Of a stretch of 60,161 nucleotides of DNA, positions 5,278 through 50,774 are shown piece after piece. The notes beneath the pieces were generated by a model, which was not told where the DNA came from, made no database searches, and saw only the letters and a list, made by a program, of their open reading frames with translations. The stretch is from Candidatus Daviesbacteria bacterium (GTDB taxonomy: Bacteria > Patescibacteriota > Microgenomatia > Daviesbacterales > UBA10151), in the NCBI GenBank assembly GCA_003519445.1, contig DOWS01000020.1:1-60161 (forward strand), given 5' to 3'. Made by a program: the position numbers and the translations under genes. The first letter of the stretch is position 1. Every line of letters begins with the position of its first letter.

Positions 5278-5856
5278 TTAAATTTCAATCAAACTTCCAT
5301 TTTTAATAGCCTTTTTAAAAAGATCTTGAATTTCACCTTTCTCTCCATCAATAACATCTCTCACAAATCCAGCTACAGCATCTGCTAACCTAATTAAAGC
5401 ATTGTTCTCATCTTTATTAACACCTTGAACCTTTCTAGTAGGAACACCCAGTTTTCTTAACTCACTACCGTATTCTTGCCTTTTATTTTTACTTAAGCCG
5501 TCAACATACACAAGCGTTGTATATTCTTCCGGCTCTTTAAAATGGACTGCTTTGGCGATACCGGTAATAGTTGCTAAATCGTAATTGGGTTGCTCATGGT
5601 AAATGGAATATCGTAATTTCTCCTTAAAAAGCTTGTTTGAAAATACTCTACTTATATAATCAATGCGTCTTGCATATTTTGCTCTTCCCCATTTATCTTT
5701 ATGTTTAGCGCTTTCTTCTTCAATTTTTTCGCAAAGGGTTAATAATTCATCCCGTTCTTTTCCGGTAACTACTATTGACACAATAAAAATATCACCTTTA
5801 GTATCCTGACCATTCTCGTCAACATAGCAGTAAAGTTTCTGTTTAATAATTTTCAT
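5278..5856 (-). CDS. DUF3800-family protein
   Basis: N-terminal YCYVDENGQD and C-terminal NALIRLADAVAGFVRD match the DUF3800 signature (xYxDESG ... LQLADxxAG). Confidence 0.6.
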   Translation of the reverse strand: MKIIKQKLYCYVDENGQDTKGDIFIVSIVVTGKERDELLTLCEKIEEESAKHKDKWGRAKYARRIDYISRVFSNKLFKEKLRYSIYHEQPNYDLATITGIAKAVHFKEPEEYTTLVYVDGLSKNKRQEYGSELRKLGVPTRKVQGVNKDENNALIRLADAVAGFVRDVIDGEKGEIQDLFKKAIKNGSLIEI

Positions 5857-11043: not shown

Positions 11044-11912
11044 AAAATTACTCCCGGATTGCTATTTAACAAAGTAGCAGCTGCTACGCCCAGAATTGCC
11101 ATGTGGGCTACTCTGGATGAGGCAATCCTAAATACCCCCCGTTTTTTCAAAATAATAAAATCAGCAACCAGTAAAATAACCATTAAAGAAATAAGACCCA
11201 AAGAAGCAGTCCGCGAAAAAGAGTACGGATCTAACAATGGTTTTCCTGATAATGGAGTCTGTACTGCTGCCAAAAGCTCTGGTTTTTGATTATATTCTTG
11301 TATTGGCACAACGGTTTGCTTGCCGGAAACATTAACAAGCGGCTGGCCTGGTAAATTCTCCGTGGTACCGAATTCCTGCACCACCAAGGTGGTTTTTTGT
11401 CCATTCAGCACCCCCTCCACCACTGCTATGCCAATATCCTGATATTTTGGATTTAGGAGGTTTTCCCTGTGAGTAGTAGAGGCCATCCAAGCGGATACCA
11501 CTTCATCCGAGGAATAAAAATTCTTGGCCAGATTTTCCCCGGCATAGGTAAATTTATAACCTGAACCCAAAATAAAATCCCAGGGAGTCTTGCCACTGGG
11601 GGCAAAATGAGCCCAGTAATTTTCTTGGAACATATTTTGAGCCTTAAGGGCTGCTGCCTGATCTAAAGCGGCGTTTTCCGCAACCGGAGGCAAACCCTGT
11701 TTTTCCCTTTCAACATTTGTCAGTTCAATCAGTTTTTTTTGGTCAATATCTCCTGAAATTCCCAAAACTCCGGGTTTTGCATAACCTACTATGGAAAAAC
11801 CTACCTGGAGCAAAATAAAAAGCAGAATATAGATTAAAATAGCCTCCCAGGAAATTAAGTGGGCTTTTTTATGAGTATCTTTATGAGGTAAAAAAAAGTT
11901 GCGAAAGATCAT
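11040..11912 (-). CDS. CAP/SCP (PR-1-like) domain protein with N- and C-terminal TM segments
   Basis: NVEREKQGLPPV...NYWAHFAPSG...YAGENLAKNF...VVSAWMASTTHRENLLNPKYQDIGIAVV. Confidence 0.8.
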   Translation of the reverse strand: MIFRNFFLPHKDTHKKAHLISWEAILIYILLFILLQVGFSIVGYAKPGVLGISGDIDQKKLIELTNVEREKQGLPPVAENAALDQAAALKAQNMFQENYWAHFAPSGKTPWDFILGSGYKFTYAGENLAKNFYSSDEVVSAWMASTTHRENLLNPKYQDIGIAVVEGVLNGQKTTLVVQEFGTTENLPGQPLVNVSGKQTVVPIQEYNQKPELLAAVQTPLSGKPLLDPYSFSRTASLGLISLMVILLVADFIILKKRGVFRIASSRVAHMAILGVAAATLLNSNPGVIL

Positions 11913-11935: not shown

Positions 11936-12023
11936 AATTTTCAGTTTTTAATTTTCAATTTACAATGAATTTTCAATAATTAATGCTCAATGTTTGAAAA
12001 TTGTAGATCGGTACTTGAAAATT
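11936..12023. repeat. cluster of five TTGAAAATT / AATTTTCAA 9-mers
   Basis: aattttcaG 11936-44, aattttcaa 11950-58, aattttcaa 11968-76 (one orientation). ttgaaaatt 11994-12002, ttgaaaatt 12015-23 (opposite orientation). Confidence 0.6.
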
Positions 12024-12366
12024 AGTAATTAAGTTCTGTTTCAATTTTTTTCTCGTTAACCGGAATATTCAGGGCAAAGCCCAAAGCATTGGCTACAGAT
12101 ACTCCCACTCGAAGTCCTGTAAAAGACCCGGGTCCAGTTTCAACTTCAATTGCTTTTAGCTTTCCAATCCCGGATTGGAATTGACTTGACAATCCGGGAT
12201 TGTAGGTTCGAAATAACTTGACTATCAAAGGCAACAAAACTTGTGATCCAAATTTATTTTTGGCAGACATGCTTTTTATGACTTTGCACTTTACGCTTTG
12301 CACTTTACCCTCTACAAGGGCCACCTCCACCCTATTTTGCTCTTTGGTATTTATATAAAGAACCAT
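12022..12366 (-). CDS. tsaB: TsaB-like protein (t6A biosynthesis), only N-terminal half length (114 aa)
   Basis: ETGPGSFTGLRVGVSVANALGFALNIP is the TsaB/YeaZ signature. Contains the 56-nt palindromic element in frame (TYNPGLSSQFQSGIGKLK). Confidence 0.65.
   Translation of the reverse strand: MVLYINTKEQNRVEVALVEGKVQSVKCKVIKSMSAKNKFGSQVLLPLIVKLFRTYNPGLSSQFQSGIGKLKAIEVETGPGSFTGLRVGVSVANALGFALNIPVNEKKIETELNY
12154..12209. repeat. 56-nt palindromic element, copy 1 (inside tsaB)
   Basis: ttttagctttccaatcccggattggaattgacttgacaatccgggattgtaggttc, 56/56 identical to 36520-36575. 13-bp perfect stem (12165-77 / 12190-202), 12-nt loop. Confidence 0.9.
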
Positions 12367-12372
12367 GTCCGA

Positions 12373-12381
12373 ATTTTAACA
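12373..12381 (-). promoter_or_regulatory. extended -10 (TGT-TAAAAT), 6 nt upstream of tsaB ATG 12366
   Basis: Minus strand: tgtTAAAAT-tcggac-ATG. Confidence 0.45.
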
Positions 12382-12386
12382 TTTTT

Positions 12387-12395
12387 TGATATACT
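12387..12395 (+). promoter_or_regulatory. extended -10 (TGA-TATACT), 7 nt upstream of ATG 12403
   Basis: tgaTATACT-caagaat-ATG. Back-to-back with the tsaB promoter. Confidence 0.45.
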
Positions 12396-12402
12396 CAAGA
12401 AT

Positions 12403-12984
12403 ATGCAGGATATAAAAACTATTATCAGTATTACTGCAATAATATTAACTTTTATTGGTTACATTCCGTATCTTCGTGATACTTTACAAGGAAAAACAAC
12501 ACCTCATGTTTACACATGGTTTATTTGGGGATTTGTCACAGCTATAGCTTTCGGCCTTCAGGTCGAGGGAGGTGCGGGAGTAGGTTCATGGGTAACTATA
12601 GTAGTTGCCATCATCTGCTTTACTATATTTTTGCTGGGCATGCGAAGTGGCAAAAAAGATATTGCTCTCTCTGACACAATATTTTTTGTTCTCTCATTTG
12701 TGGCTTTATTTTTGTGGCTGATTGCTAAACAGCCTGTATTATCAGTTATTCTTACTTCAACTATTGATCTGCTCGGTTTCGCCCCCACTGTTAGAAAATC
12801 CTGGAATAAACCACACTCGGAAACGCTATTTACATACGAGCTAAGTACCTTGAGACACGGATTAAGCATATTAGCCCTGCAACAATACAGTATTGTAACT
12901 TGGCTTTATCCTGTGAGCTGGACATTCGCAAACGCGCTCTTTAGCTTGATACTGATAATCAGAAGAAAACAAGTTAACAAATAA
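12403..12984 (+). CDS. 6-7 TM membrane protein (PQ-loop-like?), function unknown
   Basis: Start moved to ATG 12403 (MQDIKTIISITAIILTFIGYIPYLRDTLQGKTTPH...). The ORF-track start 12298 overlaps tsaB. Confidence 0.55.
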   Translation: MQDIKTIISITAIILTFIGYIPYLRDTLQGKTTPHVYTWFIWGFVTAIAFGLQVEGGAGVGSWVTIVVAIICFTIFLLGMRSGKKDIALSDTIFFVLSFVALFLWLIAKQPVLSVILTSTIDLLGFAPTVRKSWNKPHSETLFTYELSTLRHGLSILALQQYSIVTWLYPVSWTFANALFSLILIIRRKQVNK

Positions 12985-27431: not shown

Positions 27432-28778
27432 TTAAAGACGGTAACCTGCTTCTCCGTGAACAGCCAAATCCAACCCTTTGGCTTCCTCATTAAGAGTTAC
27501 GCGAAGCTCTGTAATAATTTTAACCAGTTTCAATATTACATAAGTGCCAACAAAAGAATATGCCGCCACCACCAAAACAGCCAAAATTTGCAATAAAACC
27601 TGACCGGGATTGCCAAAAAGTAAACCATTGCTGCCGACACTGTTAATAGCTTTTTCCGCAAATACGCCGGTTAAAATCGCCCCGGTCACTCCCCCCATTC
27701 CATGAGCTGCCCAAACATCCAAAGTATCATCAATCCTGGTGTGTAAACTGCGGAAACTCAAAGATAGGTAAGTAACGACACCAGCAAATATGCCAATGGC
27801 AATGGAAGATATCGGGCCGACAAAACCGCTGGCCGGAGTAATTGCCACCAATCCGCACACGGCTCCGGTGGCGGTTGCTAGGGCAGAGGGTTTTTTGTCT
27901 TGCGCCCAGGAAAGAATCATCCAGACTAAGGCTGATGCAGCTGCCGCAGTATTGGTTACCACGAACGCACTCACTGCCAAACCGGATGCTGCCAGAGCCG
28001 ATCCCGCATTAAATCCAAACCAGCCAAACCAAAGCAGACCTGCGCCTAAAAGAACAGTCGGAACATTGTTAGCTACTATTTTATGAGTAGCGTTTTTTCT
28101 TCTGCCAACTAAAATTGCTGCTGCCAAAGCGGAAAAACCCGCAGTGATGTGTACCACAGTTCCTCCGGCAAAATCCAGAGCCCCCAAGGAACGAAGCCAC
28201 CCTCCCACACCCCAAACCCAATGTGCCACCGGGTCATAGATAAAAGTAGTCCACATTAAAACAAATATGACCAGCGCCCTGAAACGGATTCTTTCCACAA
28301 AGGCTCCGATAATTAACGCTGGGGTGATAATGGCAAACATGGCTTGAAAAATCATAAAAGCAAGTTGTGGAATAGTTGAGGCATAATCCGGATTTGGCGC
28401 AAAACCAACGCTTTTTAAGGCAAGAAAATTAAAACCTCCTATTAAACCATTAATATCCTTGCCAAAAACCAGACTGTAACCCAAAATCACCCATTGCAAC
28501 GAAACCAAGGCTAAAATAACCAAAGAATGTTTAATCACCGAAACTACATTTTTGCTACTCACCATACCTCCATAGAAAAACCCCACTGCCGGGGTCATAA
28601 TCATCACCAAAGCTGCCGCCATCAAAACCCAGGCTGTATCTCCTGTGTTTATGGCGCCCAGATCAAAACTGCCTGCAGAAGTGCCGGCTAATTTAGTAGC
28701 CATATACCCTGTAAATAACCCTAAAAGTACCAATAAAAAGGTCAGTCTTTTTAAATTCATTTTTAAAAATTGTTCCAT
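27432..28778 (-). CDS. amt: ammonium transporter
   Basis: 11-12 TM. DFAGGTVVHITAGFSALAAA, AHGMGGVTGAILTGVFA. Confidence 0.9.
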   Translation of the reverse strand: MEQFLKMNLKRLTFLLVLLGLFTGYMATKLAGTSAGSFDLGAINTGDTAWVLMAAALVMIMTPAVGFFYGGMVSSKNVVSVIKHSLVILALVSLQWVILGYSLVFGKDINGLIGGFNFLALKSVGFAPNPDYASTIPQLAFMIFQAMFAIITPALIIGAFVERIRFRALVIFVLMWTTFIYDPVAHWVWGVGGWLRSLGALDFAGGTVVHITAGFSALAAAILVGRRKNATHKIVANNVPTVLLGAGLLWFGWFGFNAGSALAASGLAVSAFVVTNTAAAASALVWMILSWAQDKKPSALATATGAVCGLVAITPASGFVGPISSIAIGIFAGVVTYLSLSFRSLHTRIDDTLDVWAAHGMGGVTGAILTGVFAEKAINSVGSNGLLFGNPGQVLLQILAVLVVAAYSFVGTYVILKLVKIITELRVTLNEEAKGLDLAVHGEAGYRL

Positions 28779-31140: not shown

Positions 31141-31180
31141 ACACCCTTGGGGTGGAATAGGTTGACACCTACGGATATTT
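31141..31180 (+). repeat. 40-nt REP-like repeat, orphan copy A
   Basis: acacccttggggtggaataggttgacacctacggatattt. About 95% identical to 49989-50028 and 50706-50745, same orientation. Confidence 0.9.
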
Positions 31181-31221
31181 TAGTTACTTTGAGCCCAAAA
31201 CAATATGAAAATGTTGGAAAT

Positions 31222-35397: not shown

Positions 35398-36240
35398 ATG
35401 GATAACACACAAAAACCTAGCTCATTACCCACCTTTGATCCAGTACCTCCTCCAAGCCCTCCGCAATATCCCACCTTTCCCCAAGAACCACCTCCTATAA
35501 CTCCTGCACCTCCACCCCCTGTTACTACCCCTCCATGGCCTCCGGCTCCGGAACCTGCTCCTGTTTCACCCTTACCTCCCTTTCCAAGCGAACCTTTTAC
35601 TCCAGTAGAGCCAAACTTGAATTCTGCAAATCTCTCTTCAGGCTGGCCTCCGCCCCCGACATCACCTGCTCCACCAACCCCACCTCCCCCTCCAAATATT
35701 TCGACATCCCCTCTTGATAATCCCTGGGGTGCACCACCTCAACCACCTCCCATAAGTAATCCTTCAACTCCACCTCCATGGACGCCACCTCAAACGCCGG
35801 TTGAAACTTCAGATTCACCACCCACTGATTTATCACATCTGGTTGGAAACAGCTCCCAGCCGGAACCAACGCCAACAAATTTAAATCAGGCGGAAACGCT
35901 GGTTGTTCCATCAACCATTACTCCTGAAACATCTACCGAACCTTCTGAACATAACAAGAGAGGAGTACCAAAATGGTTAATTGGTGTAGGGGTGGGACTT
36001 TTGCTTGCGGTACTCGGTGTTTCTGCTTATTTTATTATGGGGATTGGCCAGACTCCCAAAACAACCAGCTTACCGGCAGTTGATACTTCACAAGCAACAC
36101 AAATTAAACCTCCTGCCCCGATTGCTACTCCACCAGTTCAATCCCCGGCTCCTGTAGATAATTCTGCCAGTTTTGGGGATTTACAAGGCGGGGGACAACA
36201 AGCTACCCGGGCAGGAGACTTACTCCGCCAAGGAAGATAA
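35398..36240 (+). CDS. proline-rich membrane protein (single TM)
   Basis: About 170 aa of P/T/S-rich low complexity, TM WLIGVGVGLLLAVLGVSAYFIMGI, short P-rich tail. TTGACA-17-TAAACT promoter at about 35350-35378. Confidence 0.5.
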   Translation: MDNTQKPSSLPTFDPVPPPSPPQYPTFPQEPPPITPAPPPPVTTPPWPPAPEPAPVSPLPPFPSEPFTPVEPNLNSANLSSGWPPPPTSPAPPTPPPPPNISTSPLDNPWGAPPQPPPISNPSTPPPWTPPQTPVETSDSPPTDLSHLVGNSSQPEPTPTNLNQAETLVVPSTITPETSTEPSEHNKRGVPKWLIGVGVGLLLAVLGVSAYFIMGIGQTPKTTSLPAVDTSQATQIKPPAPIATPPVQSPAPVDNSASFGDLQGGGQQATRAGDLLRQGR

Positions 36241-36516
36241 TTACTTTATTCCTTTGTGAATATACTTTAGCCACCAATTTTTAACAAGAGGGACAGATAA
36301 AGTTGATAAAATAAATGCCACTGCCGGAACTATGGAATTAACAAAAGGTTGACTAATACCCGCGAACAAAAAGAAAAGCGAAATTACGAAATAAGTTAAA
36401 AGAGATATCAAAAGTTTTCTGGTCCAACTTACCTCCCAGGATTTTTCTCTCTCCACCCGTTTGTTTCTTTCTTTAATTTTATTAATTTCCAATTCTAAAT
36501 CTTGAATTGTAGCCAT
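36241..36516 (-). CDS. small 2-TM membrane protein with coiled N-terminus
   Basis: Start moved to MATIQDLELEINKIKERNK (36516). The 14 upstream codons of the ORF-track call lie inside the 56-nt repeat. Confidence 0.5.
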   Translation of the reverse strand: MATIQDLELEINKIKERNKRVEREKSWEVSWTRKLLISLLTYFVISLFFLFAGISQPFVNSIVPAVAFILSTLSVPLVKNWWLKYIHKGIK

Positions 36517-36519
36517 AAG

Positions 36520-36575
36520 TTTTAGCTTTCCAATCCCGGATTGGAATTGACTTGACAATCCGGGATTGTAGGTTC
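36520..36575. repeat. 56-nt palindromic element, copy 2 (serS 3' end / intergenic)
   Basis: Identical to 12154-12209. Overlaps the serS stop codon by 2 nt. Confidence 0.9.
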
Positions 36576-37806
36576 ATTTAGATTTGATTTCAGAAAATCC
36601 GGTGTATTTTTGTAAAACTTCCGGAATTTTGACAGATCCATCTTCTGCTTGAAAATTTTCCAATAGGGGAATCAGAATGCGGGGAGAGGCAATGGCAGTA
36701 TTATTTAAGGCATGGCAGAATTTTATTTGCCCATCTTTATCGCGATATTTAATCTTTAATCTTCTGGTTTGGAAATCCAAACACATGGAATTTGAATGGG
36801 TTTCGCCGTACCCGTCTCTGCCGGGCATCCAGGTTTCTATATCATAAGTTATGGCCGCCTTTTTCCCCATATCTTGACTTGATAAAACCACCACTTGATA
36901 GGGGAGTCCAAGCATATCCAAAATCTCCTCGCTATTTTCCTGCAGCTCCTCAAAAAAACCCAAAGACTCCTGTTCGTCCGCTTCGCATAACACAACCTGT
37001 TCTACTTTAACAAATTCATGTACCCTATAAAGACCCTTGGTATCTTTTCCGTATGAACCAATTTCCGTTCTAAAACAAGGCGAAAGAGCCACATATTTTT
37101 TAGGTAAATCTTTTATATCAAAAGTTTCACCGGAATGCATAGCCATCAAGGGAATTTCCGCCGTACCAACTAAATATTCATCCTCTCCTAATTTATATGT
37201 ATCTTCTTCGTTCCAGGGAAACTGTCCCCCTCCTAAAAGAGCAAACCCTTTATTGATAATAGGAGGAATAATCTGTTGAAGTCCCTTTTGAGTTAAATGA
37301 TCCAAGGCAAATTTTAAAACTGCGCAGTGCAATTTTGCTCCCTCATTCTTTAAATAATATCCCCGAAATCCTGCCACTTTCACTCCCCTGTCAAAATCAA
37401 TAATATCTAAAAGTTTTCCCAGTTCTATATGATCTTTGGGCTTAAAATTAAATTTAGTTGGTTCACCATTTTTACGGATAACTTTATTTTTAGAGGCATC
37501 CCCTATTGGCACTTCATCCAGTATAATATTCGGCACTTGCAGCATTATTTCTTGCCAGTTCTTTTCTACCTCAGCCAGGTTTTTCTCAAAATCACCGAGT
37601 TCCTGTTTTATTTTTTTTCCGGCTTCTATATTCTTGGCTTTCGCATTCTCATTTCGTTTTGCCCGCAAATCATCTACCTGTTGGATGAGTTTTTTTCTAT
37701 CATCATCCAAAGATAAAAGCTTATTTAAGTCCACTTGAGCTTTTCTGACTTCAACAGATTTTTTAACTTTGTCTAAATTGTCTCTAATAAAATTAATGTC
37801 TAACAT
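36574..37806 (-). CDS. serS: seryl-tRNA synthetase
   Basis: MLDINFIRDNLDKV, coiled-coil arm, class II motifs (FRTEIGSYGKDTKGLYRVHEF, HALNNTAIASPR). Start moved to ATG 37806. Confidence 0.9.
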   Translation of the reverse strand: MLDINFIRDNLDKVKKSVEVRKAQVDLNKLLSLDDDRKKLIQQVDDLRAKRNENAKAKNIEAGKKIKQELGDFEKNLAEVEKNWQEIMLQVPNIILDEVPIGDASKNKVIRKNGEPTKFNFKPKDHIELGKLLDIIDFDRGVKVAGFRGYYLKNEGAKLHCAVLKFALDHLTQKGLQQIIPPIINKGFALLGGGQFPWNEEDTYKLGEDEYLVGTAEIPLMAMHSGETFDIKDLPKKYVALSPCFRTEIGSYGKDTKGLYRVHEFVKVEQVVLCEADEQESLGFFEELQENSEEILDMLGLPYQVVVLSSQDMGKKAAITYDIETWMPGRDGYGETHSNSMCLDFQTRRLKIKYRDKDGQIKFCHALNNTAIASPRILIPLLENFQAEDGSVKIPEVLQKYTGFSEIKSK

Positions 37807-37807
37807 A

Positions 37808-38398
37808 TTATTTCTTCTGCCAATCTCTGGCAGGTTCAACTTCCCCGCTTAAAATCAAATCTACTGCTTTTTTGTGCCAGTCAAATTTGGTTATATGATA
37901 CACCTGCTTAAAATATTTTAACGCATTTTGAGCCCCGGGTACACCCTTGGCTTGGGCCAAGGCATCTAAATTATCAGCTGCTTTTACTACTCTTGCCTCC
38001 ATTGTATTCCTTTGATTATATTCTTCAACCAGTTCAATTATTTCTTTTTTAGAATCCAAACCGTCAACCAAGGCAGCCACCCCTTCTTCTTCAATATTTT
38101 TAAAAACCCCTCCTGCCATACCTTTGACAAAAGTCCCCACATCCCCCACAATTGTTTCTCCAATATCATGAACCAGTCCCATTTTTAAAACTTTTTCAGC
38201 ATCTAAATTTAATCCTTCTTTTTGTAATTGTTTTGCTAAAAAATAGGCCAAAAGGGCAGTGGAAAAAGAATGTGCTGCCACAGAATCCGCCTCATTTCTT
38301 TTAAACCCCATTGCAATAAAACCCTGTCTGGGAAGCTCCTTGGCCCACTGCAAGGTTAAAAATACTTTTAAAATTTTTTTAAGATCATTTATTTTCAT
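37808..38398 (-). CDS. HD-domain phosphohydrolase (YfbR-like 5'-nucleotidase type)
   Basis: SVAAHSFSTALLAYFLA ... LVHDIGETIVGDV. Confidence 0.75.
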   Translation of the reverse strand: MKINDLKKILKVFLTLQWAKELPRQGFIAMGFKRNEADSVAAHSFSTALLAYFLAKQLQKEGLNLDAEKVLKMGLVHDIGETIVGDVGTFVKGMAGGVFKNIEEEGVAALVDGLDSKKEIIELVEEYNQRNTMEARVVKAADNLDALAQAKGVPGAQNALKYFKQVYHITKFDWHKKAVDLILSGEVEPARDWQKK

Positions 38399-49988: not shown

Positions 49989-50028
49989 ACACCCTTGGGG
50001 TGGAATAGGTTGACACCTGCGGATTTTT
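49989..50028 (+). repeat. 40-nt REP-like repeat, copy B (left of the transposase gene)
   Basis: acacccttggggtggaataggttgacacctgcggattttt. Confidence 0.9.
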
Positions 50029-50047
50029 GGATTATATTAGCCTTAAT

Positions 50048-50695
50048 ATGCCTTCAAGAGTTATACCATTTATTAACGGGCAAATATACCATGTTTATAA
50101 TCGCGGAACTGAAAAAAGAAGAATATTTGAAACCCAGCGTGATTATCAAAGATTTCTAAAAACTCTTAATTATTATCATTTAGAAGGGTCAAAGCCAAAG
50201 TTTTCGCAATTTTCCCCAACCAAATCTTTTAAACCAGATTTATCTAAAAAAATAGTAGAAATAATGGCTTATTGCTTAATGCCTAATCACTTCCATTTAC
50301 TTCTAAAACAAGTTCGGGAAGGGGGGATAACTGAATCAGTAAGTAAATTATCAAATAGTTATACAAAGTATTTTAATATTAAACACAGAAGGACCGGATT
50401 ACTGTTACAAGGAGAGTTCAAGTCAGTATTAATAGAAAGCGGCGAACAACTAATCCATGTCTCGCGCTATATCCACCTAAACCCTATCGCCTCTTTTCTT
50501 GTTAAGAATTTGAATGATTATCAATGGTCTTCTTATAAAGAGTATGTTAATAATTTAAAGGGTTTCTGTACAAAAGATGAGGTTTTAGGTTTTTTTAAAC
50601 CTGTCAAATCTTATGAGCAATTTTGTTTAGATCAAGTTTCCTATGCTCAAAGTCTTGAAAGGATTAAACACGCCCTGATTGATATTAACGGTTAA
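50048..50695 (+). CDS. HUH/Y1 tyrosine transposase (IS200-like / REP-associated RAYT type)
   Basis: GQIYHVYNRGTEKRRIFETQRDYQRFL, AYCLMPNHFHLLLKQ (HUH = HFH), SRYIHLNPI (catalytic Tyr), DYQWSSYKEY. Start moved to ATG 50048. TTGACA(50010-15)-17-TATATT(50033-38) lies inside and after repeat B. Confidence 0.8.
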   Translation: MPSRVIPFINGQIYHVYNRGTEKRRIFETQRDYQRFLKTLNYYHLEGSKPKFSQFSPTKSFKPDLSKKIVEIMAYCLMPNHFHLLLKQVREGGITESVSKLSNSYTKYFNIKHRRTGLLLQGEFKSVLIESGEQLIHVSRYIHLNPIASFLVKNLNDYQWSSYKEYVNNLKGFCTKDEVLGFFKPVKSYEQFCLDQVSYAQSLERIKHALIDING

Positions 50696-50705
50696 TTTTT
50701 TATTG

Positions 50706-50745
50706 ACACCCTTGGGGTGGTATAGGTTGACACCTGCGGATTTTT
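50706..50745 (+). repeat. 40-nt REP-like repeat, copy C (right of the transposase gene)
   Basis: acacccttggggtggtataggttgacacctgcggattttt. One mismatch to copy B. Confidence 0.9.
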
Positions 50746-50774
50746 CTGTATTTTTGTGCTTGTAATTTGGAAAG

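Follow-up and report, generated by a model that had tools for sequence, protein, structure and literature searches.

Contig DOWS01000020.1 of Candidatus Daviesbacteria (assembly GCA_003519445.1), whose 60,161 nucleotides were analysed in full and are called the window in the following, carries one and the same 56-nt hairpin sequence at two places, in frame inside the gene for TsaB and directly behind serS, the gene for seryl-tRNA synthetase. What kind of element is this, how did it come to lie within a housekeeping gene, and why are the two copies identical? We propose, with a probability of about three in four, that the 56-mer is a REPIN-like element, i.e., an inverted doublet of a 13-nt repetitive extragenic palindrome (REP) unit, and that it belongs to a REP/RAYT (REP-associated tyrosine transposase) system, or REPtron, of Daviesbacteria and other Microgenomates. 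Each unit reads CAxyC-NNN-Gy'x'TG and is bordered by a (G)TAGGTTC tag at one end and by GAAAGCTAA at the opposite end.

The 56-nt element and its two copies in the window

A search of the window that allowed up to three mismatches returned exactly two occurrences of TTTTAGCTTTCCAATCCCGGATTGGAATTGACTTGACAATCCGGGATTGTAGGTTC, identical at 56 of 56 positions and both on the plus strand, whereas zero matches are expected from shuffled sequence. The copies are in direct orientation, 24,366 nt apart, and their sense strand is the minus strand:

12154-12209, minus strand: copy 1, sense GAACCTA-arm-TCAAGTCAATTC-arm-GAAAGCTAAAA, in frame in tsaB as T54-K71
36520-36575, minus strand: copy 2, same sequence, occupying the spacer between serS and a small open reading frame (ORF)

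The arms, CAATCCCGGATTG (12165-12177 and 36531-36543) and CAATCCGGGATTG (12190-12202 and 36556-36568), form a perfect 13-bp inverted repeat around a 12-nt loop (12178-12189 in copy 1), and every arm alone is a near-palindrome. RNA folding of the sense strand gave the same 13-bp stem for copy 1 (-24 kcal/mol, z -3.6) and copy 2 (-24.7 kcal/mol, z -4.1). Both the pair of identical copies and the stem with its loop had been described in a sequence-only reading of this DNA, and both are borne out. An nhmmer profile of 52 copies detected only the two 56-mers in the window, where no convincing single arms were found either. Rfam returned only chance-level hairpin matches on the element, without a matching family, and a single tRNA for the whole window. 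One weak nhmmer match (E 0.025) lies inside the ammonium transporter gene, where CAATCCTGGTGTG at 27731-27743 is followed by TAAAC; it could be a decayed single arm or due to chance.

Direct repeats at this distance might mark the attL and attR ends of an integrated 24-kb element, or they might betray a chimeric assembly, and one contig seems to speak for such readings. L004 (Logan, 1411 nt) consists of window positions 35848-36519, the repeat and positions 12210-12892, and P0022, the 163-aa 'protein' predicted from it, joins residues 1-71 of TsaB to the ORF downstream of serS. A cross-join of this kind is expected because the 56-nt repeat exceeds the Logan word length of 31, as inferred from 30-nt overlaps. 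L004 and P0022 are therefore most likely the product of mis-assembly; formally, the junction of a 24-kb circle or a tandem duplication would also account for them, and real recombination between the two copies may occur, if rarely. The interval between the copies holds a release factor gene (PCRF/RF-1), ftsE/ftsX, an M23 peptidase gene, tsaE, glnA, amtB and secA, in the order seen beside tsaB in other Daviesbacteria, and we reject the integrated island since the 24 kb are syntenic housekeeping DNA. Assembly chimerism, which the sequence-only reading had wished to see checked against reads, is likewise rejected, as independent contigs from several runs and assemblies back both native junctions: Logan contigs from two runs cover the whole tsaB copy, and in a third run the unique flanks on both sides of copy 2 reach 30 nt into the repeat, whose unitigs have 2-3 times the depth of the flanks. 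We regard either explanation as highly improbable.

A dispersed family with fixed in-frame sites

The family was sought in one genome per species with the degenerate pattern CAMWCCNGGWKTG-N12-CAMWCCNGGWKTG, for which about one chance match is expected by our own estimate. The scan yielded 80 matches in 78 loci, both within ORFs and intergenic, with up to nine per genome under the strict pattern (JACOXD, 9; CAYLXC, 7; CAYWKL, 7; JACPDA, 5; a Curtissbacteria genome, 4). The element is thus not confined to two places, which would have spoken against the dispersed in-frame palindrome, resembling the Rickettsia palindromic elements (RPEs), that had been suspected from the window alone. Microgenomates copies read (y)GAACCTA-arm-TCAAsTCAAwTC-arm-GAAAGCTAA and have the same termini and loop as the 56-mer of the window. 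The two termini, GAACCTA and GAAAGCTAA, do not make an inverted pair. TAGGTTC follows the arm (…ATTG-TAG-G) in both copies of the window, in most of those from Microgenomates and in the single arms that lie downstream of RAYT genes.

The long hairpin is the feature best preserved. A perfect 13-bp stem is present in 47 of 64 copies, and inter-arm pairs are complementary at 245 of 256 unconstrained positions as compared with 205 of 256 for intra-arm pairs; the arm itself is palindromic in 33 of the 64. Hybrid arms occur in many genomes (CAATCCCGGTTTG / CAAACCGGGATTG); with them the long hairpin remains perfect, but the single arm is no longer palindromic. The idea of two operator palindromes with four equal half-sites is weakened by these common hybrids, which retain the long hairpin only. 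Loop-flip isomers (L022, L037, L047, L053, L066, L077, L096-L099) have the same termini and differ in the loop, GAATTGAcTTGA versus TCAAgTCAATTC; inversion between the two arms would produce such a pattern.

Many copies are buried far inside long ORFs; orthologous genes of different genomes have them at identical positions, and two element frames are used. The third sense frame has TAA at its end, and two frames of the reverse orientation contain TAG; the observed frames are therefore probably those left by selection for an open frame. Fixed in-frame sites were found in at least nine housekeeping genes, which were named from translated ORF sequences, UvrB being confirmed against solved structures. 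Besides TsaB, the hosts are:

UvrB (seven genomes), UvrC (five), DinB (five), PrmC (three)
RecO (two), peptide deformylase, def (two)
PurD, a ThyX-like protein, a P-type ATPase and HMG-CoA reductase

In UvrB the element amounts to a 17-residue insertion between SATPxxYE and VxQxxRPTG relative to the solved structures. The extragenic location after which REPs are named does not apply to copy 1 and many of its relatives, which sit inside ORFs.

A separate-looking family of long palindromes was seen in L012, L018, L026, L034, L039, L052, L055, L070, L072, L074 and L075, mostly Omnitrophota loci (L072 is labelled only 'uncultured bacterium'). Its arms are of the form CACACCSGGTGTG, its loop is palindromic (e.g. 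TACA…TGTA) and its flanks are complementary, and the hairpins of about 50-56 nt occur several times per genome, some of them inside long open frames.

Elements flank RAYT-like transposase genes

Genes of the Y1 type near elements were collected by tblastn with the Y1_Tnp-like protein of the window. In eleven loci (L031, L038, L041, L043, L044, L063, L082, L096, L097, L098 and L099) the start of the Y1 gene lies at most 45 nt from an upstream element. Complete doublets stand on both sides of the gene in L031 and L044, and eight other loci combine an upstream doublet with just one tagged 13-nt arm on the downstream side. The contig of L098 ends inside the Y1 gene, so that ten of the eleven loci have a downstream doublet or singlet. 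The encoded proteins match Pfam Y1_Tnp, with the HUH motif MPNHFHLL and the tyrosine motif SRYIHLNP, and their sole NCBIfam match is NF047646, the REP-associated tyrosine transposase (E about 1e-14). Judged by sequence, the layout of the element, hereafter class 1, around these genes appears to be that of a REPtron.

The link extends to the arm type of the window. A metagenome scan for this type recovered further serS copies, one tsaB copy and three other contexts, the latter directly upstream of ORFs starting MPYRTIPF…. RAYTs of this MPYRxIPF group (clade 1) co-occur with the class-1 element, and their members are 64-78% identical, with L044 more distant at 54-59%. Other RAYT clades are flanked by class-2 repeats, CACCT-NNN-AGGTG or CACCC-TTG-GGGTG, and at several loci the class-2 repeat is followed by the same TAAAGCTAAA terminus. 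The window itself has such an arrangement, in which the repeat, D1, is a 13-nt mini-hairpin CACCCTTGGGGTG followed by GAATAGGTTGACACC…:

50048-50695, plus strand: RAYT-like Y1/HUH transposase gene of another clade than the RAYTs beside class-1 elements; MPNHFHLL, SRYIHLNP
49989-50042, plus strand: class-2 REP-like repeat D1 upstream of this gene, CACCC-TTG-GGGTG then GAATAGGTTGACACC
50706-50759, plus strand: D1 immediately downstream of it
31141-31194, plus strand: third D1 copy, intergenic

Promoter-like sequences accompany the copies upstream of RAYT genes. Their loop/arm junction reads TTGACA, with TAAAGT or TATATT 17 nt on, and those examined closely (L043, L096-L099) belong to the flipped isomer, in which TTGACA arises. 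The upstream D1 copy also contains TTGACA-17-TATATT (50010-50038). The two window copies are the other isomer, without the TTGACA site; no outward promoter was found in them, the -10 part being missing. A further observation concerns L099, where two RAYT-like genes of different clades (954-1571 and 11214-11834) are separated by about 10 kb and have different repeat classes at their sides, each its own.

A filled and an empty site behind serS

Copy 2 lies between two genes on the minus strand:

36574-37839, minus strand: serS, whose stop TGA (36574-36576) overlaps the element terminus (T)GAACCTA by 2 nt
36241-36516, minus strand: 91-aa membrane ORF downstream of serS, with its ATG at 36516

The first bases of the copy complete the serS TGA and its last bases stand 3 nt before the ATG of the 91-aa ORF; the hairpin begins 5 nt past the stop. 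At this site the element would give one gene its stop codon and the following one its leader. Orthologues of the small ORF, taken with their upstream DNA, gave two states of the junction:

L091, another Daviesbacteria genome: …AAACCTAAATAAAATGGCT, spacer of 4 nt, ATG 1 nt after the serS stop
Window, L092, L093 and L094: …AAATGAACCTAC…GGAAAGCTAAAACTTATGGCT, spacer of 60 nt

The net difference is +56 nt, the length of the repeat. Because the empty L091 site differs from the filled one by exactly this length, copy 2 is, on sequence grounds, best described as an inserted copy at the 3' end of serS. The filled site was found in four other assemblies. Its boundary is ambiguous within 4 nt, and a single insertion explains the pair best if one substitution, TAA to TGA, is allowed. 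Between the window, L092 and L093 the filled spacer does not differ at all (100% identity), although the flanking coding DNA is about 84% identical (own count over about 63 nt).

The filled and empty pair also bears on the proposal that the element is a member of the Rickettsia RPE family or a conventional MITE (miniature transposable element of the inverted-repeat type) with terminal inverted repeats and target-site duplications, moved by a DDE transposase. The small size, the inverted-repeat arms and a residence in frame in housekeeping genes, as known for RPEs, would suit such an origin. RPEs, at about 100-150 nt, are much longer than 56 nt, the serS pair shows no visible target duplication, and the only consistently adjacent transposase gene is of the Y1/HUH type. 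The two window copies revealed neither a target-site duplication nor a target motif in common, and the 56-mer lacks the combination of terminal inverted repeats and target-site duplication that marks MITEs. The tag, moreover, is (G)TAG and not the CGTC reported for RPE-type repeats (PMC3733652). We consider this proposal improbable; by its sequence the family seems better assigned to GTAG-tagged REP doublets with RAYT-like genes than to RPEs proper.

As a side observation, serS, the element and the downstream ORF (36241-37839, minus strand) share one reading frame that is broken only by the TGA at 36574-36576. We read this as coincidence and not as recoding because other genes of the window end in ordinary stops.

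An old copy in tsaB

Copy 1 resides in a short host gene:

12022-12366, minus strand: tsaB, 114 aa, N-terminal YeaZ/TsaB domain only, Pfam TsaD/TsaB family PF00814

The protein has the N-terminal ASKHA-type domain with the GPGSFTG motif and, as in all close orthologues, represents the N-terminal half only; most of 120 listed homologues (P0001-P0120) measure 93-126 aa, compared with 206-251 aa for solved YeaZ/TsaB proteins. Its closest homologues are from Candidatus Daviesbacteria (Microgenomates, Candidate Phyla Radiation, CPR), and the family profile matches solved YeaZ/TsaB chains with E values of 1e-6 to 4e-4. The element is read as (R53)TYNPGLSSQFQSGIGKLK71, directly before AIEVETGPGSFTG, exactly where it had been placed in the sequence-only reading; the tryptic peptide relevant to this segment is TYNPGLSSQFQSGIGK. 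That reading had also supposed that the segment is about six residues longer than usual and that its 18-19 residues might be an insertion. The segment is indeed longer, the family profile alignment giving 8 residues more than in solved YeaZ/TsaB; the net gain is thus smaller than the whole stretch, and the tsaB copy is not a recent one. The suspected surface loop agrees with an AlphaFold2 model (predicted local distance difference test, pLDDT, 73; predicted template modelling score, pTM, 0.70), in which the element residues form a loop between helix 44-54 and strand 72-77, with pLDDT below 50 at residues 58-64.

Most Daviesbacteria orthologues, which are 60-80% identical, have RTYxPGLSxQxQxGxGKLK at the element position. 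As DNA, they keep two 13-nt arms 25 nt apart, and changes in the arms are coordinated:

Window, L001, L009: arm 1 CAATCCCGGATTG, arm 2 CAATCCGGGATTG
L007: arm 1 CAAACCCGGTTTG, arm 2 CAAACCGGGTTTG
L005: arm 1 CACTCCAGGAGTG, arm 2 CACTCCAGGAGTG

Where orthologues share an amino acid, they use the same codon in 80% of cases inside the element versus 49% outside, and third-position identity is 0.69 inside versus 0.47 outside. The segment therefore appears to be conserved at the DNA level and not at the protein level. Loss of the element has left traces: a close relative, P0014, retains the termini ACCTACAAC|CTAAAA and has lost a 39-nt core, and P0021, among the closest TsaB relatives of the window, has one arm left, which is of the other arm class. 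From this distribution, the tsaB copy seems to be old, to predate much of the Daviesbacteria radiation and to have decayed by deletion in some lineages. In the tsaB gene of P0014 (L089:36-356), a 14-nt tandem duplication (CTACAACCTAAAAC / CTACAACCTAAAAA) stands where the element core is missing, which suggests local slippage during loss of the hairpin.

These data also bear on whether the hairpin could be native to tsaB and copy 2 just a duplicated gene fragment. The two copies are identical, the one in tsaB is ancient, and orthologous TsaB proteins have the same residues, all as a duplication would predict. Those orthologues come from repeat-bearing genomes, however, and the test of the sequence-only reading, which looked to repeat-less genomes for the same residues, thus turned up nothing against the element. 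Moreover, the 8 additional residues are absent from solved YeaZ/TsaB, conservation resides in the nucleotides, and the 56-nt unit with its termini stands in dozens of contexts across Microgenomates, including RAYT flanks and at least seven other genes. This family-wide distribution leads us to reject a fragment duplication, which has next to no probability left.

Two observations concern the surroundings of tsaB. At 5278-5856 (minus strand) the window has a DUF3800 gene between a NUDIX gene and a 381-aa gene; in the relatives L005/L006 and L009/L010 a RAYT-like Y1 gene takes this slot in opposite orientation, some 6-7 kb downstream of tsaB. To judge from these sequences, the place is a variable slot within otherwise conserved synteny. 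In the spacer between tsaB and a CAP-domain gene, the A/T-rich stretch 11937-11981 (…TTTTTAATTTTCAATTTACAATGAATTTTCAATAA…) reaches 10-20 times the depth of its flanks in three metagenome runs and has many different continuations there, while it has a single occurrence in the window and is absent from all fetched loci. Either another dispersed motif or a sequence common to many community members may lie behind this.

Arms follow the genome, not the site

Arm identity and arm class (A/C) were compared between pairs of elements:

Same genome, different sites: arm identity 0.934, same A/C arm class in 94%
Same host-gene site, different genomes: arm identity 0.838, same A/C arm class in 49%
Unrelated pairs: arm identity 0.836, same A/C arm class in 53%

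The arm-identity pattern is significant by permutation (p <0.0002). Because arms resemble those of genome-mates more than their counterparts at orthologous sites, the arms of the element appear to evolve in concert, and resident copies would be either homogenised or replaced in place. A more far-reaching version holds that REP doublets in essential genes of Daviesbacteria are kept perfect and are overwritten to the REP type of the respective genome, with possible host roles as promoters, stops and leaders. We put this forward tentatively and think it rather less probable than not. If it were true, a domesticated transposase system, acting by RAYT-dependent replacement or gene conversion, would rewrite loops of about 19 codons across a CPR clade, namely in TsaB, UvrB, UvrC, DinB, RecO and PrmC.

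Genome-specific arm types are also what a functional cis-element, as opposed to selfish DNA, would show, i.e., an operator bound by a dimeric protein, or an RNA hairpin with a regulatory or stabilising role, that the host maintains at each site and that tracks a co-evolving binding factor. Single arms that are palindromes in about half of the copies (33/64), a 60-nt serS spacer that stays invariant between diverged flanks (100% versus about 84%), constrained synonymous sites in tsaB, the promoter-like TTGACA-17-TAAAGT in RAYT-upstream copies and a hairpin starting so close (5 nt) behind the serS stop all fit this idea. It makes no sense for an operator, however, that the unit is read in two frames at internal codons of unrelated genes. 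Hybrid arms keep the long hairpin at the expense of the per-arm palindrome, deletions erode copies and leave the host gene in place, the orthologous serS site is empty in a relative, and both window copies are without the -10 part of the promoter-like site. A host function is a minority alternative in our assessment, and an unlikely one, albeit the least unlikely of the rival explanations.

How well the REP/RAYT reading holds

In the reading that we prefer, the element is a small selfish repeat whose hairpin would form on single-stranded DNA and in mRNA, and a cognate clade-1 RAYT encoded outside the window would recognise it and copy or move the elements. The transposase would also homogenise the copies, directly or via recombination between them. 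In essential genes, only frame-keeping insertions in tolerant surface loops would survive, and the element would then simply be translated. Recognition, copying and homogenisation by the RAYT are what we infer, with the pair of empty and filled serS sites as the sole indirect support for mobilisation, and the element appears to fit the GTAG/REPtron kind on every sequence-level feature tested.

Several points weigh against this reading. The G of GTAG doubles as the last base of the stem, and the tag is present on one side only. With 4-9 copies per genome under the strict pattern, the elements are far fewer than classical REPs. No clade-1 RAYT is encoded in the 60-kb window, where the RAYT-like gene that is present has another repeat at its sides (class 2, D1), and the NF047646 matches score 52-55 bits, under the curated cut-off of 80. 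No target-site signature is definable at the empty serS site, given the ambiguity of the boundary within 4 nt. None of the RNA runs searched for the locus contains it, and transcription and translation of the element are predictions. Finally, the perfect conservation of the serS spacer across lineages and the constraint on synonymous sites could also mean host function.

Should the REP/RAYT reading hold, REPtron systems would be extended to the CPR, whose genomes of about 1 Mb are highly streamlined and in which selfish repeats are thought to be rare. It would also provide a natural experiment, in which one and the same palindrome of 19 codons occupies orthologous sites in several essential proteins across many species and yet tracks the repeat type of the genome. 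Concerted evolution of coding sequence by a repeat family would thereby become directly measurable, which is the part most worth following. In practice, short-word assemblies are broken or wrongly joined at the 56-nt repeat, as in the fusion 'protein' P0022, and the element puts spurious-looking loops into core proteins that are used as phylogenetic markers.

Comparison with known systems

Insertion sequences of the IS200/IS605 family and the transposase-less palindrome-associated transposable elements (PATEs) rely on Y1/HUH enzymes that act on single-stranded DNA hairpins and insert without target duplication. The family described here shares the enzyme type and is likewise without target duplication. 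In IS200/IS605 elements, however, the hairpins at the left and right ends are distinct and insertion takes place beside a fixed tetra- or pentanucleotide, whereas a single symmetric doublet is the unit here and no shared target motif was seen at the two window copies.

The RPEs that Ogata et al. are said to have described in 2000 and 2002 are reportedly palindromic, lie in frame in conserved housekeeping genes, encode surface segments and decay slowly. A palindrome persisting in frame in conserved housekeeping genes, common to related species and subject to slow decay, is what we see as well. The present elements are set apart by a several-fold shorter length and by the (G)TAG instead of the CGTC tag, i.e., by size and tag and not by comparison with an RPE consensus. 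Rickettsia conorii RPE sequences end in CGTC, and CGTC-tagged repeats are without a dedicated transposase (PMC3733652). Bacterial MITEs such as the Coxiella QMITEs (PMC5896051) and the Correia elements are similarly small and non-autonomous, can extend or interrupt ORFs and carry promoter-like sequences. In contrast to our family, MITEs in coding regions have terminal inverted repeats and target-site duplications and derive from insertion sequences of the DDE type.

The closest resemblance is to the GTAG-tagged REPs and REPINs, with which the family has in common a short stem-loop unit, the (G)TAG tag and inverted dimers that fold into a longer hairpin (PMC3116915, PMC3733652). GTAG REPs have stems of 5-13 bp, occur predominantly as inverted dimers and are served by REPtrons specific to each repeat family (PMC3733652); in the Microgenomates, too, there are several families per genome, each beside its own repeat-flanked Y1/HUH gene, as in REPtrons (PMC3116915, PMC3733652). 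REP termini can supply stop codons, and intragenic REPs are known in other phyla, notably in DNA repair genes, where the dimers encode about 20 aa (PMC3733652). Both traits recur here, with termini that supply stop codons and some copies within genes, notably those for DNA repair. Classical REPs differ in several respects: here the unit is very short (13 nt, with a 5-bp stem and a 3-nt loop), copies are few, a high share is intragenic at orthologous sites across species, and stems follow the type of the genome. The RAYT-like proteins, unlike those of REPtrons, score under the curated RayT threshold. A further difference is the host, a member of the CPR and of the Microgenomates. The phyla listed in the REP survey do not include the CPR (PMC3733652), and a literature search on REP, RAYT, MITE or RPE elements in CPR or Patescibacteria found nothing relevant, in agreement with the sequence-only reading, which was not aware of a described equivalent there. 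Accordingly, what appears to be new is the CPR host group, the kind of element and its intragenic behaviour being already familiar from other phyla.

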